NCBI GenBank assembly: GCA_903854535.1
Contig: CAINWR010000027.1
Span: 1-41,074 of the forward strand
Direction of reading: 5' to 3'
Source: Candidatus Staskawiczbacteria bacterium
GTDB taxonomy: Bacteria; Patescibacteriota; Minisyncoccia; Minisyncoccales; Staskawiczbacteraceae
DNA: 41,074 nt
Of the stretch, positions 9,888 through 39,028 are shown one piece after another. Numbering within the stretch: position 1 is the first letter of the stretch; each line of letters opens with the position of its first letter. The translations under genes and the position numbers were made by a program. Below the pieces are notes generated by a model. That model did not search any database and was not told the origin of the DNA. It saw only the letters and a program-made list of their open reading frames with translations.

Positions 9888-9945
9888 AATTTTCAATTTT
9901 AAATTTCTAATTTTCAATAAATTTTTCAATTAGACAATTTTCAAT
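9888..9945. repeat. Degenerate heptamer array (AATTTTC)n
   Basis: Several aattttc-like units fill the intergenic spacer. Confidence 0.5.
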
Positions 9946-9951
9946 TGAATT

Positions 9952-10632
9952 TTAAATATGTTCTTTTACGCAATCAAGAGAGAGGTTTTTAAACTTATTT
10001 ATTGCTTGTTTGTTGAATAAATTTTCCTGCCTTAAAAATGGTTTGATTATTCTTAATGCAAACGCCCAAGCCTTTCTTTCTGATAACACAATTTCTTGAT
10101 TTGTATTTGTTTTTCTAAATGGTTTTCCATATTTCTCTGGCTCTGCGTGAATATGACCAATTTCATGTAATAATGCAAGTATTACTTTTGGTTCTGTTAT
10201 GTCTCCATAAACAGTTACGATTTTTTCTTCAGGGTATTCGCCACTTTTTTCTAAATCATTAGATTTTGGATCAAATAAAGCTCGGCAATCTTCTGGCATA
10301 ATATCCATTATATTTATTTCATAGTCATCAATTTTTAAAATTAGGTGGCTAATTTCTAAAAAAAATCTTTTTTGTTCCTCATCTGAAAAATATGCAGATG
10401 TTCTATACTCAATAAGTAAGGTGATGCCCCCATTTTTAATTTCCATTCCACAAACCTCGTCATATTTTACTTCGCCAATTTTTTGCGATAGAAAAATTAA
10501 AGCACCCCTAGTTGCTTCTTGTTCTTTTGGGTTGCTTATTCTTTGTTTAATAATTTTTTCTACTCCTTCTGATATTGGGTAGGAATTTTCTAATTTTAGC
10601 CCTTCATTTTCTCGTTCAATTGGTTCTTTCAT
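9952..10632 (-). CDS. Hypothetical protein with HExxH zinc-metallopeptidase-like motif
   Basis: ALLHEIGH followed by ERKAWAFA. Confidence 0.65.
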   Translation of the reverse strand: MKEPIERENEGLKLENSYPISEGVEKIIKQRISNPKEQEATRGALIFLSQKIGEVKYDEVCGMEIKNGGITLLIEYRTSAYFSDEEQKRFFLEISHLILKIDDYEINIMDIMPEDCRALFDPKSNDLEKSGEYPEEKIVTVYGDITEPKVILALLHEIGHIHAEPEKYGKPFRKTNTNQEIVLSERKAWAFALRIIKPFLRQENLFNKQAINKFKNLSLDCVKEHI

Positions 10633-10660: not shown

Positions 10661-10688
10661 TTGACAAGAAGTTTTAATTTGCTATAAT
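10661..10688 (+). promoter_or_regulatory. Consensus sigma70 promoter pointing into the 3' end of the pemK gene
   Basis: TTGACA(10661-66)-16 bp-TATAAT(10683-88); no plausible + strand ORF downstream. Confidence 0.7.
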
Positions 10689-10694
10689 TAATCT

Positions 10695-10766
10695 ACAAAC
10701 GGCTTCGGCCCTCTCTTGCTTAAAAACAAGAGTAACTATCTGAGAAGCGCTATAAGCGCTTCTTTT
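10695..10766 (+). ncRNA. Candidate small antisense RNA convergent with pemK/mazF
   Basis: GGC-UUCG-GCC (10701-10), ctcttg/caagag (10713-32), terminator-like agaagcgct-ata-agcgcttct-ttt (10743-66). Confidence 0.55.
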
Positions 10767-11113
10767 AGTTTGGTAAAATTATTCTCGCTCATTGTATCAA
10801 TTTTATACTGTAATCTTTTTGTGTCTATCAATCTAATTTGTGACAATATCGCTACGCTTTGATTTGAAATTTTAAAGTAGTATTTTCCTATTTTATCGGT
10901 TCTAGTTAGTGGTAATATCCATGCTACATCATTATTAAATTTTAGTAAAATAACTGCAGGTCGCAAAAAATTTTCACCACTGCCATCTTGTTCAAATCCA
11001 ACATTTTCTCCAAGCGAAGCAAACCAAATTTCTCGTTCATGAAAAAATGGACGTTTTTTATCGTTATGGATTTTTGATTTTCTATCGTGCCATTTTTTAT
11101 AATCCTTTTTCAT
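10736..11113 (-). CDS. PemK/MazF-family endoribonuclease toxin-like protein, no adjacent protein antitoxin
   Basis: EIWFASLGENVGFEQDG, RPAVIL, LPLT, LSQIRLIDTKRL; starts 2 bp after the ppsA stop. Confidence 0.85.
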   Translation of the reverse strand: MKKDYKKWHDRKSKIHNDKKRPFFHEREIWFASLGENVGFEQDGSGENFLRPAVILLKFNNDVAWILPLTRTDKIGKYYFKISNQSVAILSQIRLIDTKRLQYKIDTMSENNFTKLKEALIALLR

Positions 11114-11115
11114 TT

Positions 11116-13569
11116 CTATTTTTGTAATTTTTTTTCAAGAGCTGATATGGCGATTTTGGTTTTTAAAACTGCATCGGGGGAGAGGGATAAAGACTCTATT
11201 CCTTTTTCTACTAAGAACTCTGCAAAGTCTGGGAAAGTAGATGGGCCGTCGCCACAAATTCCAATATATTTGTCATTGTTTTTACAAACTCTTATTGCTT
11301 CTTCAAAAAGTTCTTTGGTAGCTTCATTTTTTTCATTGCCAATATGAGCTATTTCTCCATTATCACGATCTAAGCCCAAGGTCAATTGAGTCAAATCATT
11401 TGATCCTATAGAAAATCCATCAAAAATTTCTAAAAACTTTTCAGCTAAAATCACATTAGCTGGGATTTCACACATAACATAAATTTTTAATCCAGATTCT
11501 TGAGATAACCCATTCTCCTTCATTATGGCAATAACTTTTTTACCCTCTTCTACGGTCCTACAAAATGGAATCATAACTTGCACATTATCAAGCCCATATT
11601 CTTCTCTTACTTTTTTGATAGCCCTACACTCTAAAGCAAAAGCATCTTTGAATTTTGGATCATAGTAGCGCGAAGCTCCGCGAAAACCAATCATAGGGTT
11701 TTCTTCTTTTGGCTCAAAAGTTTCTCCCCCAACAAGCGACCTATATTCATTGGTTTTAAAATCTGAAAATCTTACAATCACTTGTTTTGGATAAAATGCT
11801 GCCCCTATTTTACCAATACCTTGAGCTAATTTATCAATATAAAATTGTATCTTACTCGCCTCGCGTCGAAGCGGGTCATCCCATCCTGCTGTAATTTTAT
11901 CTACTTGAGTTTTTGTTTTTTTATCTAATTTATTATAATTTAAAAGAGCAAGCGGGTGTACTTTTATATAATTGGCAATTATGAATTCTTCGCGAGCAAG
12001 CCCCACGCCATCATTTGGAATAAAGCTTAAGGCAAAAGCATGATCTGGCTCTCCCAAGTTCATAGTAATTTTGGTTTTGGTTTTTTCTATATTAGATATA
12101 TCTGTTTTTTTAATTTCAAAAGGTATTATGCCCTCATAAACTTTCCCTTCTTCGCCTTCTGCACAAGAAACTGTAATTTCTTGCCCAGATTTTATTTTTT
12201 TAGATCCTGTAACAGACCCAACCACAACAGGAATACCAAGCTCTCTTCCAATTATTGCAGCATGGCAAGTTCTACCACCTCTATCTGTGACAATAGCTGA
12301 AGCTATTTTCATAGCAGGCACCCAATCTGGATCTGTCATTTCAGTTACTAAAACTTCCCCAGCTTTAAATTCTGCTACATTTTTTACATCTTTTATTACG
12401 TGAGCTTTCCCTTGCCCAATTTTATTTCCCACACTAAGGCCTATTACTATAGTTTGTAGTTTATGATTTATAGTTTGTAGTTTATACTCCTCTAGTACAC
12501 TTAAATTTTTTTTGCTTTGAACTGTTTCTGGTCTTGCTTGTACAATAAATAATTTTCCTGTTTTTCCATCTTTAGCCCATTCCATATCCATAGATTTTTT
12601 GTAATGTTCTTCAACTATTATTGCCCATTTTGCTAATTGCAAAGCTTCATCATCTGATATAGAAAAACTTTCACGTTCTTTTTTGCTTGTAATAATATTT
12701 TTTGTTGGATCTTTGGCTTTGGTGTTTGGATTATAAACTAATTTTTCTTCTTTAACTCCTAGTTTCTTATCTATAACTGGTTTAAAACCCTTTTTAAGCG
12801 TAGTTTCGAAAATATAAAATTGATCAGGATCAACTCTTCCTTTTACTATATGTTCTCCTAATCCATAGCTAGCATTAATAAGCACTACATCACCAAATCC
12901 AGATTCAGTATCACAAGAAAACATAATTCCAGAAACTCCAAGATCAGATCTTACCATTTTTTGTATTCCTACAGATGAACCTACTTTGAGTTGATCAAGT
13001 CCAAGCTGATTTCTGTAAACAATAGCTCTATCTGTAAAGAAAGAAGAAAAACAATCTTTGACTGCTTTAACTAATCTCTCATGGCCAGAGATATTTAAAT
13101 AGGTCTCAAATTGCCCAGCGAAAGAAGCATCTGGATTATCTTCTGCAACTCCTGAAGTTCTTACTGCTACATCAGTATTTTCAAATTGTTCTGAGCTTGT
13201 TGAAGGGTATTTTTTTGACAAATCATCATAAGCATCAAATAATTCTTTTTGCAAATCTTCTGGTAATTCTGCGTTTAGTAATAAATCTCTGCAAGCCTTA
13301 CCAACTTGTTGGACGCTTTTTACATTTTTAGGATCTAAAGTTTTAAAGACATTATTAAGTTTTTCTTCTAATCCATTTTCTTTGATAAACTTCCAATAGA
13401 AATTTGTAGTTAAAGCAAATCCATCTGGTACAGCAACCCCTTTTGAAGTAAGCTGTGTAAACATTTCACCTAAGCTTGCATTTTTTCCACCAACTAGCGG
13501 GACATCAGTCATTCTTAATTCTGAAAAGTGTAAAATATTTTTTTGATCTCTATTTATTTCATTTGCCAT
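11116..13569 (-). CDS. ppsA: Phosphoenolpyruvate synthase
   Basis: VGGKNASLGEM, SFAGQFET, phospho-His motif GGRTCHAAI, FSIGSNDLTQLTLGLDRD. Confidence 0.96.
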   Translation of the reverse strand: MANEINRDQKNILHFSELRMTDVPLVGGKNASLGEMFTQLTSKGVAVPDGFALTTNFYWKFIKENGLEEKLNNVFKTLDPKNVKSVQQVGKACRDLLLNAELPEDLQKELFDAYDDLSKKYPSTSSEQFENTDVAVRTSGVAEDNPDASFAGQFETYLNISGHERLVKAVKDCFSSFFTDRAIVYRNQLGLDQLKVGSSVGIQKMVRSDLGVSGIMFSCDTESGFGDVVLINASYGLGEHIVKGRVDPDQFYIFETTLKKGFKPVIDKKLGVKEEKLVYNPNTKAKDPTKNIITSKKERESFSISDDEALQLAKWAIIVEEHYKKSMDMEWAKDGKTGKLFIVQARPETVQSKKNLSVLEEYKLQTINHKLQTIVIGLSVGNKIGQGKAHVIKDVKNVAEFKAGEVLVTEMTDPDWVPAMKIASAIVTDRGGRTCHAAIIGRELGIPVVVGSVTGSKKIKSGQEITVSCAEGEEGKVYEGIIPFEIKKTDISNIEKTKTKITMNLGEPDHAFALSFIPNDGVGLAREEFIIANYIKVHPLALLNYNKLDKKTKTQVDKITAGWDDPLRREASKIQFYIDKLAQGIGKIGAAFYPKQVIVRFSDFKTNEYRSLVGGETFEPKEENPMIGFRGASRYYDPKFKDAFALECRAIKKVREEYGLDNVQVMIPFCRTVEEGKKVIAIMKENGLSQESGLKIYVMCEIPANVILAEKFLEIFDGFSIGSNDLTQLTLGLDRDNGEIAHIGNEKNEATKELFEEAIRVCKNNDKYIGICGDGPSTFPDFAEFLVEKGIESLSLSPDAVLKTKIAISALEKKLQK
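11855..11875. repeat. 21-bp palindromic element CTCGCC-N6-CGAAGCGGG, in frame in ppsA
   Basis: ctcgcc-tcgcgt-cgaagcggg, read as PLRREAS. Confidence 0.65.
12450..12484. repeat. Heptamer array (TAGTTTR)x5 inside ppsA
   Basis: tagtttg tagttta tgattta tagtttg tagttta, read as KLQTINHKLQ; same unit at 25252-25286. Confidence 0.7.
13186..13208. repeat. Degenerate REP-like element in frame in ppsA
   Basis: ttgttctgagcttgttgaagggt, read as PSTSSEQ; resembles 6276-6300. Confidence 0.6.
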
Positions 13570-13663: not shown

Positions 13664-13719
13664 ATATCTGTGGATCATTGACAACAATTTCTTGTTCTTG
13701 TGAATTTCCGGAGGATAAA

Positions 13720-14871
13720 GTGATTGATCAAGAACTTCAAGCAAAACTTGATGCCCTAAAAGAAATTAAGGGGCAGTACATGGTCGGATCCCAGACTGCT
13801 TACTGGTTTCTAAAGGCGCGGCGACACTATGACAACTTGTGCAATCGTCTCCACAAGTTGGGGTGCAACATCAGTGTAAACGAAGCGTCTTTGGTAACCG
13901 GCAACATCTTGACCGCATCGAAGACTGCAATAGCGATGACCTTGGTTGTAAACAGCACCATGGATCATCCGTATGTTGGTCTCGACACCTGTGTCCATGC
14001 ATTTGTACTCCCGACGCTACTTCAAGAAAGGAAAACAAAAATAAATAACTTGCATCAAGTCGGCGAAGTGGTCTGGACAGTCGATCCGTTGCCGATTTTC
14101 AAGCTCGTGCTAGACGAGTCTCGGGCGACAGACATATCGCCAGAATTCTCGGTTGGCGCGGTGCTTAAGCTCTTACTTTCGGATGTCGCACGACATGTAA
14201 AGTTCTTGGTCTGTTGCAGGACCGGAGAAAGAGTTTCTCTTTCAAACGTGGCGGAGAGAACGGAATTCCGCAATGCCCGCCGGGATACTCTTGAAGATCT
14301 GATTTTGCAAAGATTGGAATACCTTAATACGTTAGATGATGAAGTGGCCGAGGAAATTGACGAAGATTATCTTCGCCTCGTCCGGCAACTTTCAGAATCT
14401 TACGATCAAAAAGATCTTTCACAGTGCCATCTGATAATGCAGGTGATAACGGTGAGGGAAATCACTCAATCGCTCGAAATGGAAATGGTCACGGTGGTTC
14501 GCGAAAGTTGCTTGCAAGAAGAATGCCTGCTTCTGCTCGGGGTTGAGCAAATCTTTGCCAGAGCCGAAGCAGAGTATACTCTCGGCACGATCGATGTGGA
14601 GCGGCGTATAGCAGTGAATCTCGTCTATGAGCACATGCAATCAGTCGGAGAGATCACACGATCAGAGCAATCTGAGCAGTTGATCGACCTTGCGATTGCG
14701 GAGTTTCTCCGTAAAAGAGATGTTAGTAAAAGACGTCTTGCGCAGTTGGTTGATCTTGATGTTCCAGACCAGATCATTCGAGACGAGGAATATCTACTTA
14801 AAAAGCGACGATACTTTTATTTGTCGCTCAAGAAGAATCGGTCATGGCTGATTGCTTTCTTTGCCAGATGA
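13720..14871 (+). CDS. Hypothetical protein (GC-richer ORFan)
   Basis: Long ORF; GGAGG at 13710-14 precedes GTG at 13720; has its own promoter and terminator; no family recognised. Confidence 0.7.
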   Translation: MIDQELQAKLDALKEIKGQYMVGSQTAYWFLKARRHYDNLCNRLHKLGCNISVNEASLVTGNILTASKTAIAMTLVVNSTMDHPYVGLDTCVHAFVLPTLLQERKTKINNLHQVGEVVWTVDPLPIFKLVLDESRATDISPEFSVGAVLKLLLSDVARHVKFLVCCRTGERVSLSNVAERTEFRNARRDTLEDLILQRLEYLNTLDDEVAEEIDEDYLRLVRQLSESYDQKDLSQCHLIMQVITVREITQSLEMEMVTVVRESCLQEECLLLLGVEQIFARAEAEYTLGTIDVERRIAVNLVYEHMQSVGEITRSEQSEQLIDLAIAEFLRKRDVSKRRLAQLVDLDVPDQIIRDEEYLLKKRRYFYLSLKKNRSWLIAFFAR

Positions 14872-16336: not shown

Positions 16337-16377
16337 GTCCGCAAACCTTGACATAAATAACAATCATATGTTATTAT
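16337..16377 (+). promoter_or_regulatory. sigma70 promoter with extended -10, second copy of the 16-bp repeat
   Basis: gtccgcaaaccTTGACA-18 bp-TATTAT with TG at 16369-70. Confidence 0.6.
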
Positions 16378-16416
16378 TAAATATGCATTTCAGACGACCT
16401 TAATGGGGAAAATTCG

Positions 16417-16584
16417 ATGTTTAAAGAAGTTTATTCAATTCGATTGTCATGTAACGTGAAGGCCCAACTCGATAAAGTTGCCGAGGCCGAAGAGCGTACC
16501 GTTTCTTGGTTGATTAATCGAGCCGTCAAAGAATTTCTTGCACGCAGAGAAGAAAATCAAGTAGCAGAGAAGCGCGGCAGCTGA
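16417..16584 (+). CDS. Ribbon-helix-helix (CopG/Arc-like) DNA-binding protein, 55 aa, not in the ORF track
   Basis: MFKEVYSIRLSCNVKAQLDKVAEAEERTVSWLINRAVKEFLARREENQVAEKRGS; GGGGA upstream; flanked by promoter and terminator. Confidence 0.75.
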   Translation: MFKEVYSIRLSCNVKAQLDKVAEAEERTVSWLINRAVKEFLARREENQVAEKRGS

Positions 16585-18963: not shown

Positions 18964-19545
18964 ATGCCGATAGTACCAACTATTGTAGAAAAATCACAGC
19001 GCGGTGAGCGCGCATACGATATATTTTCAAGGCTTTTAGAAGAGCGCATAATTTTTTTGGCGGGTCCCGTAACAGATATGAATGCTAATGTAGTAATAGC
19101 TCAAATGCTTTACTTGGCTTCAAAGGACTCCAAAAAAGATATTAAGCTCTATATCAATAGCCCTGGTGGTTCAGTTACAGCAGGTTTGGCAATTTATGAT
19201 ACAATGCAGTTTTTAAAGTGCCCAGTTTCCACTATCTGCGTAGGGCTTACAGCTTCTATGGCAGCAGTTATTTTATCAGCAGGCACCAAAGGCAAGAGAT
19301 TTGCTTTGCCTAATGCTGAAATTTTGCTTCATCAAGTAGCTGGGGGAGCCCAAGGACAGGCAGCAGATATCGAAATAACAGCTCGTCAAATTATCAAGAT
19401 GAAAGAAAAGCTAAATCAAATTTTGGTAAAACATACAGGGCAAAAGTTTGATAAAGTAGTTACAGATACTGATAGAGATTTTTATTTGACAGCAGAAGAA
19501 GCAAAAGAATATGGGCTTATTGATGAAGTGATAGGTGGAAAATAA
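18964..19545 (+). CDS. clpP: ATP-dependent Clp protease proteolytic subunit
   Basis: [36 protein letters not shown]. Confidence 0.97.
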
Positions 19546-19562
19546 AGCCGACTATTAAACTC

Positions 19563-19644
19563 GGCAACAAACTTTTTTCCGTTGCTGGTAACCCCCTTTG
19601 CCTCTACGGGCAAGTGGGCCAGGGACTACAAAAAGTTTATTGCC
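19563..19644 (-). ncRNA. Candidate rod-like structured RNA
   Basis: 15-bp closing stem ggcaataaacttttt/aaaaagtttgttgcc (one G-U on - strand), inner ctgg/ccag, ccc/ggg, ttgcc/ggcaa. Confidence 0.4.
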
Positions 19645-19771
19645 TCGTTCCAAAATATATCGTATAAAAATGCTCACCCGCGCAAGCGAGTTTTTTTGTA
19701 AAAAAAAGAACCCGATAAGTATCATGACTCTCGGGTTGACGAAGAAATTCTTCGACCATCCTCGCATTTTA

Positions 19772-20017
19772 TTAAGCGAGGATTTCAATCACGGCAGGTT
19801 CTCCGGCGATACTGTGCTGCCAATTCATGTTGCCGGTAGCAAAATCAGACGCTGGCAGCCATGCATCATAGCCACACCTTCCTTTAATAAGTAGGTGGTG
19901 TTGCCCTTGTTCAGAAAAACATCTGAATACCTCTCCTTCGATGGGATCGTAGATTCCAGATTTAGTGCTGATGCGAACCTTGACTCCTTTGACTAGCTGA
20001 TCTGGGTACGGATTCAT
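19772..20017 (-). CDS. Hypothetical protein (GC-richer ORFan)
   Basis: 81 aa; AAGGAAGG upstream; aacccga/tcgggtt + U-tract terminator at 19700-19737. Confidence 0.6.
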   Translation of the reverse strand: MNPYPDQLVKGVKVRISTKSGIYDPIEGEVFRCFSEQGQHHLLIKGRCGYDAWLPASDFATGNMNWQHSIAGEPAVIEILA

Positions 20018-37941: not shown

Positions 37942-38538
37942 CTAGTCGATTTTGACCACTTCTGGGTTAGGGTTGACTAGACCCTTCTCCTTGTCCGTGA
38001 AGCTGAAATACAACATCACGAGTTCCAGCTCCGGAGTTCTCTTGGCAAAGAACTCTTTGATCGCAGGAAAATCCTTTTTCCCTTGGTGCGGGTCTGTGAA
38101 TCCGTAGTGCTTGATGCAAGCACAATCCTCGTGCTCTGCAACAATAACCATTGTCATTGATGGGGCGGGGTGCTCCAAGATAATGTCTAGGTCGGTTTTT
38201 TCCGCTAGACACTTGCAGTCCATCAGAACTGGGTTTGCCAAGGGATCTGGCCCACCCGGAACGACGATCGGGAAGCACTCTTCCTCCATGAGCCCGTAGC
38301 GTTCCCTGATTTTCTTATACATACACAGGCGCGGGTCGGAGCAGCACACAACGATCGCCCTGACCTTTGGGGATTCGGTTTGTTGTTGCTCTTGAGAGCT
38401 GACTTTCTGGCTCGAGTTTGTCCCAATTGCAATCAGCCAAAATGTTGCTGCGACAATTGCAAGCGCTTGAACCGCATGTAAGATACTTCCCCAGGCTGTT
38501 GGCTCCGGGCCAATTACTAACCTTACCAATTTCTTCAT
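37942..38538 (-). CDS. Membrane-anchored beta-carbonic-anhydrase-like protein
   Basis: TM then CCSDPR, VPGG, HEDC (CxD...HxxC Zn ligands); AGGAG before ATG at 38538. Confidence 0.65.
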   Translation of the reverse strand: MKKLVRLVIGPEPTAWGSILHAVQALAIVAATFWLIAIGTNSSQKVSSQEQQQTESPKVRAIVVCCSDPRLCMYKKIRERYGLMEEECFPIVVPGGPDPLANPVLMDCKCLAEKTDLDIILEHPAPSMTMVIVAEHEDCACIKHYGFTDPHQGKKDFPAIKEFFAKRTPELELVMLYFSFTDKEKGLVNPNPEVVKID

Positions 38539-38575
38539 CAATCTTCTCCTTCTTGTGAAATTGACCAAACAATGC

Positions 38576-39028
38576 CTAAGTCCACACAATGCCGTTAGCA
38601 AAAAGTTGCTCGAAGGTTTTGTCTTCCCGGAGAAAGTGCGCCGACACTGGTCTGCCGGGAAACATTTCTTCAATGTTCTTTGCAGCAATTACCGTGTCGT
38701 CCATTTTCTCTTGCAAACTGAAATCACATCCCTTGAATCTGGGGAACCTTCCGAGCATTTTGTAAATTCCGCAATCATGTCCAATTATTCGAAAGTTAGG
38801 CTGTGCGAAATTGTCTAATGCAAAGAGAGTGTCTTCCATGATGGCAGCAACTTTCATTGAGAAATACAATGGCCTCGCCAAGGCCGGCACGGTGCCAAAT
38901 AGTCCGATAGGAGCCACAAGTTTGCCTTCTGGCACCAGCAAACGCTTGGCGTATTTCCAAGTGTTAGCTTTTTCGGCGCGCGGATCTGCACACAAAAAAA
39001 AGATGCCGTCTGCTTGTTCGCTTTTCAT
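38576..39028 (-). CDS. Beta-carbonic-anhydrase-like protein (divergent)
   Basis: LCADPR ... GHDCGIY; AAGGAG upstream. Confidence 0.6.
   Translation of the reverse strand: MKSEQADGIFFLCADPRAEKANTWKYAKRLLVPEGKLVAPIGLFGTVPALARPLYFSMKVAAIMEDTLFALDNFAQPNFRIIGHDCGIYKMLGRFPRFKGCDFSLQEKMDDTVIAAKNIEEMFPGRPVSAHFLREDKTFEQLFANGIVWT

Follow-up and report, generated by a model that had tools for sequence, protein, structure and literature searches.

A PemK/MazF-fold toxin subfamily of Patescibacteria with a convergent small RNA gene as candidate antitoxin

The MazF/PemK proteins are among the most studied toxin families and are held to be under the control of protein antitoxins, and a copy that lacks a partner is commonly classed as an 'orphan' toxin. 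We describe such a copy in a stretch of 41,074 nucleotides (nt) from Candidatus Staskawiczbacteria bacterium (contig CAINWR010000027.1 of assembly GCA_903854535.1), hereafter called the window. A preliminary description of this DNA, made from its letters, proposed that the toxin gene is paired with a small RNA gene that points back at it. Our analyses revealed a whole MazF/PemK subfamily that is consistently found with a gene for a structured small RNA instead of a protein partner. If the RNA is an antitoxin, the boundary between toxin-antitoxin types I, II and III is blurred, a class of orphan toxins is explained, and genome annotators gain a simple rule. The module would also offer a compact protein-RNA pair for study, and bacteria with very small genomes would be spending their strongest promoters on such RNAs.

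The toxins of type III systems (ToxIN, CptIN, TenpIN) are endoribonucleases with a fold related to that of Kid and MazF. The window system resembles them in that a small structured RNA would inhibit the protein directly and in that a protein antitoxin is missing. It differs from them in both components. The window toxin is a PemK/MazF protein proper, with PF02452 as its only Pfam match and no PADLOC match. Its RNA gene has a promoter of its own and one copy of the RNA unit, and it lies downstream of the toxin gene, on the other strand, whereas type III antitoxins are tandem repeat arrays located upstream, on the same strand and separated from the toxin gene by a terminator. No tandem array of RNA repeats was found near the toxin gene, where the only tandem repeat is an AT-rich 12-mer at 9909-9957. 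Rfam, whose families include ToxI, gave only sub-threshold chance matches in the window region (expect value (E) <= 10) and in 14 related loci (E <= 1).

In several type I systems, namely txpA/RatA, bsrG/SR4 and fst/RNAII, a convergent RNA overlaps the 3' end of the toxin gene. The window RNA is similarly convergent, has a strong promoter, overlaps the toxin 3' end and has its terminator inside or beside the toxin gene. In contrast with txpA/RatA-type systems, the toxin is a soluble MazF-fold protein rather than a small membrane peptide, the overlap is limited to the U-tail in most relatives, and the non-overlapping 5' part of the RNA is conserved across phyla. SymE/SymR is a type I system with an enzyme as its toxin. 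RalR/RalA is presented in PMC4041452 as a type I system with a nuclease-type toxin. In both, as in our proposal, a nuclease-type toxin is controlled by a small RNA and not by a protein, but their RNAs target the 5' portion of the mRNA or work in trans by short complementarity, and the toxin folds differ.

With the type II systems MazEF and PemIK, the window toxin shares its fold and the Arg and Thr/Ser positions, but it lacks MazE or PemI and has an extra basic helix and a longer beta1-beta2 loop. According to PMC8749433, aMEF, an antisense RNA to Escherichia coli mazEF, stimulates expression. There too the system is modulated by an RNA that is read against a mazF locus, but MazE is still present, and aMEF is no substitute antitoxin. 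The module described here is type III-like in its proposed action and type I-like in its arrangement, and it has a type II toxin without a type II antitoxin. A 'pemK RNA motif' presumably has an entry in Rfam or Wikipedia. That name was not found in the main text of PMC5737381. Our literature search, outside which lay the supplementary motif and transcription start site tables of PMC5737381 and PMC3656092, found no description of a MazF/PemK protein with a dedicated RNA antitoxin or of this RNA.

The toxin and the RNA gene that faces it

The toxin gene (10736-11113, - strand) codes for a predicted PemK/MazF-fold endoribonuclease of 125 residues. The protein matches PF02452 (PemK_toxin) at E 2.4e-9, its 37.8 bits exceeding the cut-off of 23.1. 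A profile built on 30 homologues matched EndoA/YdcE of Bacillus subtilis (4mdx, 1ne8) at E 2.5e-9 and other MazF structures at E about 1e-9. An AlphaFold2 model of the toxin (predicted local distance difference test score 82.3) shows a MazF barrel, and every top match of this model in a Foldseek search of the PDB is a MazF protein, with template modelling scores of 0.6-0.7. The R of its RPVL motif and the T of its PLT motif align with the RPVLV and AITAQ motifs of EndoA; we take the Arg (in RP) and the Thr/Ser (in PLT) to be the MazF catalytic residues. Residues G35, N37, E41, G44, R51, P52, Q92 and R100 are invariant across the 30 homologues, and T/S70 is kept in all 30. The protein thus has a MazF/Kid-type barrel with the conserved Arg and Thr/Ser positions. 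Two features mark the subfamily. One is a basic N-terminal helix (residues 5-17 of a ~22-residue extension that EndoA lacks), and the other is a beta1-beta2 loop with about 5 additional residues and an invariant G-x-N-x-G-x-E motif. Based on sequence and model, the toxin is a member of a distinct subfamily of PemK/MazF-fold endoribonucleases, with predicted RNase activity and toxicity.

The RNA gene is read from the + strand, towards the 3' end of the toxin gene. Its promoter (10661-10688) consists of TTGACA at 10661-10666, a 16-nt spacer and TATAAT at 10683-10688, with an extended -10 TG at 10680-10681. It is the sole 12/12 promoter match in the 12 kb scanned; weak 9/12 matches are frequent in the same 12 kb (56, versus 42.1 +/- 6.7 in shuffles). 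We place the start of the RNA at the A located 7 nt past the -10 box and its end in the U-run after the terminator, which gives a predicted RNA of ~72 nt (10695-10766, +) that scores 77 bits with the covariance model R2 introduced below. The predicted fold of 10694-10775 has a free energy of -27.6 kcal/mol (z -4.5), and none of 200 shuffled sequences folded as well.

The predicted RNA begins with a single-stranded 5' leader, ACAAAC (10695-10700), which reads ACAAAU, AUAAAU or ACUUUU in relatives. According to the fold prediction, it is followed by hairpin 1, GGC-UUCG-GCC (10701-10710), and by hairpin 2 (10713-10732), which has a 6-bp stem (CUCUUG/CAAGAG) with an 8-nt loop and co-varies between loci. 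A terminator hairpin with a 10-bp stem, a 3-nt loop and a U-run (10742-10766) lies within the last 10 codons of the toxin gene. Its portion 10742-10764 (+), followed by UUUU, is the best terminator-like site of the 12 kb. Overall, the small RNA and the toxin open reading frame (ORF) overlap by 31 nt (10736-10766). The preliminary description had drawn this anatomy correctly, from the TTGACA-16-TATAAT promoter facing the toxin gene to the ~70-nt RNA with its UUCG hairpin, its 6-bp hairpin and its terminator in the last toxin codons. It had also stated that the promoter has no ORF to serve, and this stands: the only + strand ORF past the promoter is a 48-aa frame with a TTG start (10716-10862), which runs through the terminator. 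We rejected the possibility that the RNA encodes this peptide, since the frame crosses the terminator and the ~45-nt RNAs of relatives are too short. ARAGORN detected no tRNA or tmRNA at the locus.

Conservation of the RNA gene and search for a protein antitoxin

The pairing of the promoter and RNA with the toxin is more than chance, because the promoter, leader and hairpins recur behind toxin homologues in every set that we examined. The first set comprised 79 genomes of the same bacterial family, 27 of which have homologues. Their 47 table rows correspond to 44 PemK-like places; 36 of these genes look intact and 8 are degraded, by an in-frame stop (1), splitting of the gene (3), an internal deletion (1) or reduction to a fragment (3). 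We inspected the DNA past the toxin stop codon in 32 loci, including those of all four paralogues of the source genome, and found a convergent RNA gene in 32/32. All share the same layout on the strand opposite to the toxin gene: the promoter (TTGACA/TAnnnT) and a leader of 6 nt precede a short hairpin, which a linker of 2-6 nt separates from a GC-rich hairpin followed by a U-run. In these loci, TTGAC does not vary, the -10 box is almost invariant, and the distance between the -10 box and hairpin 1 is gapless. In addition to the 32 inspected loci, the RNA of locus L034 was located with covariance model R1. A second covariance model, R2, was made from the inspected loci and applied to the 79 family genomes. 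It detected the RNA at 42 of the 44 places, namely 36/36 with intact and 6/8 with degraded toxin genes (cross-tabulated by hand); the two that it missed are short fragments in a single genome (G051). Among the 40 best R2 matches (>=57 bits), 37 abut a PemK place and three are RNA genes without a toxin.

Similar results were obtained beyond the family. In a sample of 150 other genomes of the phylum, 19 harbour the subfamily, and a convergent promoter with two hairpins was seen by eye in 19 of 20 strong copies; R2 matched at the expected place in 17 of the 20. We retained the best 80 of at least 490 coding relatives from a pattern scan with one genome per species. R2 matched just past the toxin gene and on the opposite strand in 74 of these 80 species, comprising 69 that satisfied a script criterion and 5 in which the toxin stop had been misplaced because of in-frame stops, an offset of the frame or, in L161, an ORF extended at its C terminus. 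The RNA element was seen by eye in 4 more (L109, L118, L134 and L140), bringing the count to ~78/80; no convergent RNA was detected, by R2 or by eye, behind the toxin genes of L136 and L152. Across the 120 kb of the 80 loci, only three R2 matches lie off the expected site (L114, L136 and L152). The promoter is conserved in 77 R2 matches from the 80 species, with rare 1-nt indels between the -10 box and hairpin 1. The preliminary description had suggested looking behind homologues for a reverse-strand promoter and a GGCTTCGGCC motif with covariation. The outcome supports its proposal: the convergent RNA gene is conserved in 36/36, 19/20 and ~78/80 loci of the three sets, and hairpin 2 co-varies.

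The 80-species set is mostly composed of Patescibacteria, but it also includes the cultured Methylocystis suflitae NLS-7, an Omnitrophota metagenome-assembled genome (MAG) and an alphaproteobacterial MAG. The M. suflitae locus (L110) has the same leader, GGC-UUCG-GCC hairpin and UCCGAG linker, and the alphaproteobacterial copy has the same leader and GGC-UUCG-GCC hairpin. The Omnitrophota copy (L142) shows the same leader and stem in a similar layout, with a GAAAG loop. Plasmids of Nitratiruptor and Helicobacter carry further relatives, in which an extended -10 promoter is recognizable by eye, together with hairpins that end at the toxin stop codon.

A more distant form is found in Campylobacter phage CJIE4-3 (KF751795.1; L176, locus 1080-1290), in which a gene annotated 'toxin MazF' lies between the terminase and portal genes. 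The CJIE4 protein is 31.8% identical to the window toxin over 78% of the query (E 3e-4). By eye, a TGnTATAAT promoter points towards its gene, with an RNA of ~100 nt that ends with a GC hairpin and a U-run inside the last MazF codons.

In most relatives, hairpin 2 serves as the terminator and its U-run spans the toxin stop codon, with a median gap of 6 nt between the stop codon and the end of hairpin 2 in the genome-wide set. A third hairpin inside the toxin ORF, as in the window, is a variant within the source bacterial family. The GC, GC and CG pairs of hairpin 1 occupy 70-72 of the 74 scored cells of the genome-wide set, and other toxin clades have different versions of this hairpin, such as GGG-AUUA-CCC and UGCC-AUUU-GGCA. 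Over 153 locus pairs, identity amounts to 93% for the leader and hairpin 1, as compared with 54% for the third positions of codons for identical residues and 43% for the promoter spacer. The four paralogues of the source genome have four different versions of leader and hairpin 1, a pattern that would fit insulated toxin-RNA pairs.

The hairpin stems vary visibly between loci, and their pairing is maintained. In the family alignment, 96.8% of the cells are paired versus 72.9% in shuffles (0/500 shuffles equal), the covariation score is 0.595 versus 0.161, and 9 of 10 pairs have changed on both sides, including 6 of 7 in hairpin 2. In the genome-wide alignment, these values are 98.5% versus 73.3% and 0.590 versus 0.143, with covariation of at most 0.163 in slid controls and 7/7 pairs of hairpin 2 changed on both sides; because both alignments were made by fitting related sequences to the model, their pairing and covariation statistics overstate independence. 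The promoter, the U-run and the G-U pairs all point to the strand opposite to the toxin gene. This strand folds better than its complement in 27/32 loci (-29.65 versus -26.48 kcal/mol), and a U-run follows the hairpins on the + strand only, with none on the - strand. These observations rule out the possibility, raised by the preliminary description, that the hairpins are purely the - strand terminator of the ppsA-pemK transcript.

The decay of the two genes is asymmetric. Six of the eight degraded toxin genes retain an intact RNA gene, and three RNA genes have their promoter and hairpins intact while the toxin ORF is gone (L039, G005:C1; L040, G032:C14:79369; L041, G032:C2). The upstream gene of L039 is the same as that of the class-C toxin in L033 and L035, which suggests that the toxin was lost and the RNA retained. 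Conversely, we found only three intact toxins without a detectable RNA (L069, L136 and L152). This asymmetry fits what is expected for a toxin and its antidote.

The search for a protein antitoxin gave mostly negative results. The toxin gene follows a ppsA-like gene that codes for an 817-aa protein (11116-13569, - strand; Pfam PPDK_N, PEP-utilizers and PEP-utilizers_C). With the stop codon of ppsA at 11116-11118 and the ATG of the toxin gene at 11111-11113, the measured gap is the 2 nt announced in the preliminary description, with no space for a mazE or pemI gene. No conserved small ORF adjoins the toxin gene on either side in the 32 loci, and the MazE profile PF04014 has no match in the 100%-complete source genome, consistent with the earlier view that a protein antitoxin is missing. 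A 5.8-kb plasmid of Helicobacter suis has no antitoxin among its 5 annotated features. For the related CJIE4 MazF, PMC3995785 states that a search of its surroundings revealed no MazE gene.

Mode of action and rival explanations

We propose that the small RNA is the antitoxin of the facing toxin, whatever its mode of action. This is probable, and it is the best reading because of the strict partnership of the two genes, the missing protein antitoxin and the asymmetric decay; transcription of the RNA, toxicity of the protein and its neutralization are predictions from the sequences. In such a two-part module, the MazF/PemK-fold RNase would be expressed from the transcript of the upstream gene. 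The convergent RNA would be made from a near-consensus extended -10 promoter and would comprise the leader, the conserved hairpin, the linker, the variable GC-rich hairpin and the terminator. Abundant RNA would keep the toxin harmless, with the conserved 5' element (leader, hairpin 1 and linker) binding the toxin protein directly. Antisense pairing and head-on transcription would probably add a second layer of control. As there is no terminator for the toxin transcript, the latter must presumably read through the RNA gene.

Our confidence that direct protein binding is the main mode of action falls somewhat short of even, and we put it forward tentatively. It is favoured because the leader and hairpin 1 are conserved in sequence; antisense action in cis needs no particular sequence. 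The only other part that travels with these elements across phyla is the toxin. RNA inhibits ToxN, which is structurally related to MazF. Furthermore, the RNA is associated with the basic helix and the longer loop and not with canonical MazF proteins, which favours direct binding to the toxin. The canonical short MazF genes of the phylum sample (four weak matches) code for proteins without the N-terminal extension and have no RNA, and two of the four overlap a MazE gene (E 1.4e-5 and 4.1e-8). We rank binding first and pure antisense second, and both layers are expected to operate.

One conceivable but improbable form of such binding is that the RNA is a decoy, which would begin exactly with the recognition sequence of the RNase and act as an uncleavable pseudo-substrate; the module would then represent a toxin-antitoxin type of its own. 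The promoter would set the 5' end of the RNA, and as the recognition site would have no preceding nucleotide, no cleavage could occur. The leader, which ends in a triphosphate and is kept in place by hairpin 1, would block the active site of MazF, and the basic N-terminal helix of the toxin would clamp the hairpins. The same design of a short conserved leader and a hairpin terminator would also serve the NYN RNases of the same genomes. Convergent decoys would then be a general RNase cage in Patescibacteria, and they would also operate on plasmids and prophages of Campylobacterota.

Besides the overstated independence of the pairing statistics, several points weigh against an RNA antitoxin that acts by binding the toxin. 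An RNA that binds a protein has no need of the strictly convergent, abutting position of its gene, which is better suited to antisense action. Unrelated NYN RNases have this layout too, which could point to an RNA-RNA mechanism independent of the fold. Conservation of the 5' element could stem from constraints on the initially transcribed region or on a complementary toxin 3' untranslated region (UTR). In addition, a protein partner of the toxin is conceivable, if improbable. A solitary RHH_1 gene, the only match to this family in the genome, lies 5.3 kb away in the window (16417-16584). On a Nitratiruptor plasmid (L094, NZ_AP023062.1), a 62-aa ORF (locus 1622-1810) looks like a ribbon-helix-helix (RHH) protein by eye, with no Pfam match, and in L020 a small AbrB-like ORF was seen downstream, by eye only.

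The solitary gene of the window codes for a 55-aa protein (+ strand, E 1.3e-6) and is preceded by a TTGACA-18-TATTAT promoter with a TG, the whole region spanning 16348-16584. The Nitratiruptor ORF, annotated as a hypothetical protein, starts just past the RNA promoter and diverges from the RNA; its product could regulate the RNA promoter or the copy number of the plasmid.

The main competitor of direct binding is a type I-like mechanism by antisense only, which we consider unlikely, if still a serious candidate. The RNA would pair with the read-through 3' end of the toxin transcript, over 31 nt of the ORF here and over its whole length in the 3' UTR, and the mRNA would decay, with the duplex cut for instance by RNase III, or remain untranslated. 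The strong head-on promoter would also lower toxin transcription, and the hairpins would be needed only for RNA stability and termination. Such a mechanism agrees with the invariably convergent RNA gene that abuts or overlaps the toxin stop codon, at a median of 6 nt for hairpin 2, and with the toxin strand having no U-run after the hairpins, so that the transcript should bear the full complement. A strong promoter, as found here, is typical of unstable antisense antitoxins. The fact that NYN RNases and one P-loop kinase-like gene share the layout further suggests independence from the toxin fold. Antisense alone does not, however, account for the near-identity of the leader and hairpin 1, which persists despite saturated synonymous sites and across phyla, or for the subfamily-specific features of the protein, and in most relatives the overlap with the ORF is limited to the U-tail. 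The toxin 5' region offers no consistent complementarity either: for the region from -40 to +30 around the toxin start, the mean z of the duplexes with the RNA is -0.49 over 18 loci, which rules out trans antisense on the toxin start as a general mechanism. Low values were obtained in L012 and L016 (< -2.5) and in L022 (-1.97), all three of which share the same upstream gene.

The other explanations deny the RNA an antitoxin function. The strict association of the toxin with the RNA, and the conservation in sequence of the 5' element, would also be expected if the RNA were a partner of the RNase, as a cofactor, a guide-like specificity subunit or a preferred substrate, within a ribonucleoprotein enzyme or a self-limiting processing system. 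Class-C copies keep their flanking genes across genera, a pattern more suggestive of long vertical residence than of a mobile addiction module. We nevertheless find a partner role quite improbable, as broken or lost toxins leave the RNA behind and intact toxins almost never lack it, which is the pattern of an antidote. Furthermore, small plasmids harbour the module and a prophage its more distant form, and such elements are where addiction modules usually reside. A 6-nt leader is also too short for a guide. We attribute a similarly low probability to the view that the RNA gene insulates or regulates its neighbours without acting on the toxin, its head-on promoter and terminator blocking read-through or tuning the downstream gene. 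The module is indeed frequently squeezed in between co-directional housekeeping genes that leave very little space: in 20/32 loci, no more than 25 nt separate the toxin start from the end of a long ORF on the same strand, and some downstream genes start a few nt past the -35 box. Nevertheless, the flanking genes change between loci, the downstream neighbours varying from one of the 32 loci to the next, while the RNA stays with the toxin; and neither the conservation of leader and hairpin 1 across phyla nor the presence of the module on a 5.8-kb plasmid is explained. Least probable of all, to the point of being hardly credible, is a conventional type II system, with a protein antitoxin that was overlooked or has its gene at another place, and with an incidental RNA. 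The solitary RHH gene with its own strong promoter and the RHH-like or AbrB-like small ORFs seen by eye near two relatives would fit such a system. Against it, the complete source genome has four toxin paralogues for one RHH match and no MazE match, no small ORF is conserved beside the toxin in the 32 loci, and an incidental RNA is unlikely to be conserved behind the toxin copies of ~78/80 species.

Surroundings of the locus and similar modules

The source genome amounts to 844 kb in 77 contigs, with a G+C content of ~31%, and its four paralogues of the subfamily all score above the PF02452 cut-off. The nearest proteins are attributed by their sources to Candidatus Staskawiczbacteria or Parcubacteria. 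The toxin is probably co-transcribed with the upstream ppsA-like gene, and no promoter or ribosome-binding site of its own is visible at the locus. Similarly, no GGAGG-like ribosome-binding site was seen by eye before any of the toxin genes inspected (L009-L038), many of which start 2-25 nt past the stop codon of the upstream gene. Together, the missing site and this spacing suggest weak or coupled translation of the toxin.

On the other side, a gap of 103 nt separates the toxin ORF from the next ORF of the - strand and contains the small-RNA promoter, on the + strand. This neighbour (9952-10632, - strand) codes for 226 residues, starts 28 nt beyond the -35 box of the small RNA and harbours a HEIGH motif, with a weak, sub-threshold match to Peptidase_M78/IrrE (E 0.0038). 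NCBIfam and PADLOC gave no match for this ORF or for the toxin. We ruled it out as a partner of the toxin, as it is not conserved beside the homologues.

A second type of module with a similar design involves NYN-domain proteins (PF01936) of ~175-195 residues, each faced by an RNA with a strong promoter. The RNA is composed of a short conserved leader and one hairpin, with a U-run that spans the NYN stop codon. Such loci represent 10 of the 20 lower-scoring R2 matches that were fetched (L044, L046-L050, L053, L054, L056 and L057). Three of the proteins were identified as NYN by Pfam (E 1.5e-21, 3.7e-21 and 3e-14) and the others by eye, from a GDSDF motif. In the source genome, three of the four NYN genes have such an RNA (G000:C32:7990-8564; G000:C43:1976-2531, L003; G000:C37:5712-6250). 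In L045 (G039:C5:249621-249692 and flank), the gene of a 187-aa P-loop kinase-like protein (AAA_18, E 8e-11) is opposed by a similar convergent promoter with two hairpins and a terminator.

Other strong promoters of the source genome are found in near-identical copies (CCCTTGACAAG...TGCTATAATTAATAT) at G000:C63:9797 (L002) and G000:C71:17264 (L004), where they drive structured leaders and ORFs with a G+C content clearly above that of the genome. Islands of raised G+C (0.42-0.48, versus ~0.31 for the window) are also present in the window itself, at 13678-14871 (+), 19001-20000 and 38001-39000. The island at 13678-14871 corresponds to a 397-aa ORF that is divergent from the ppsA-like gene and belongs to no Pfam family.

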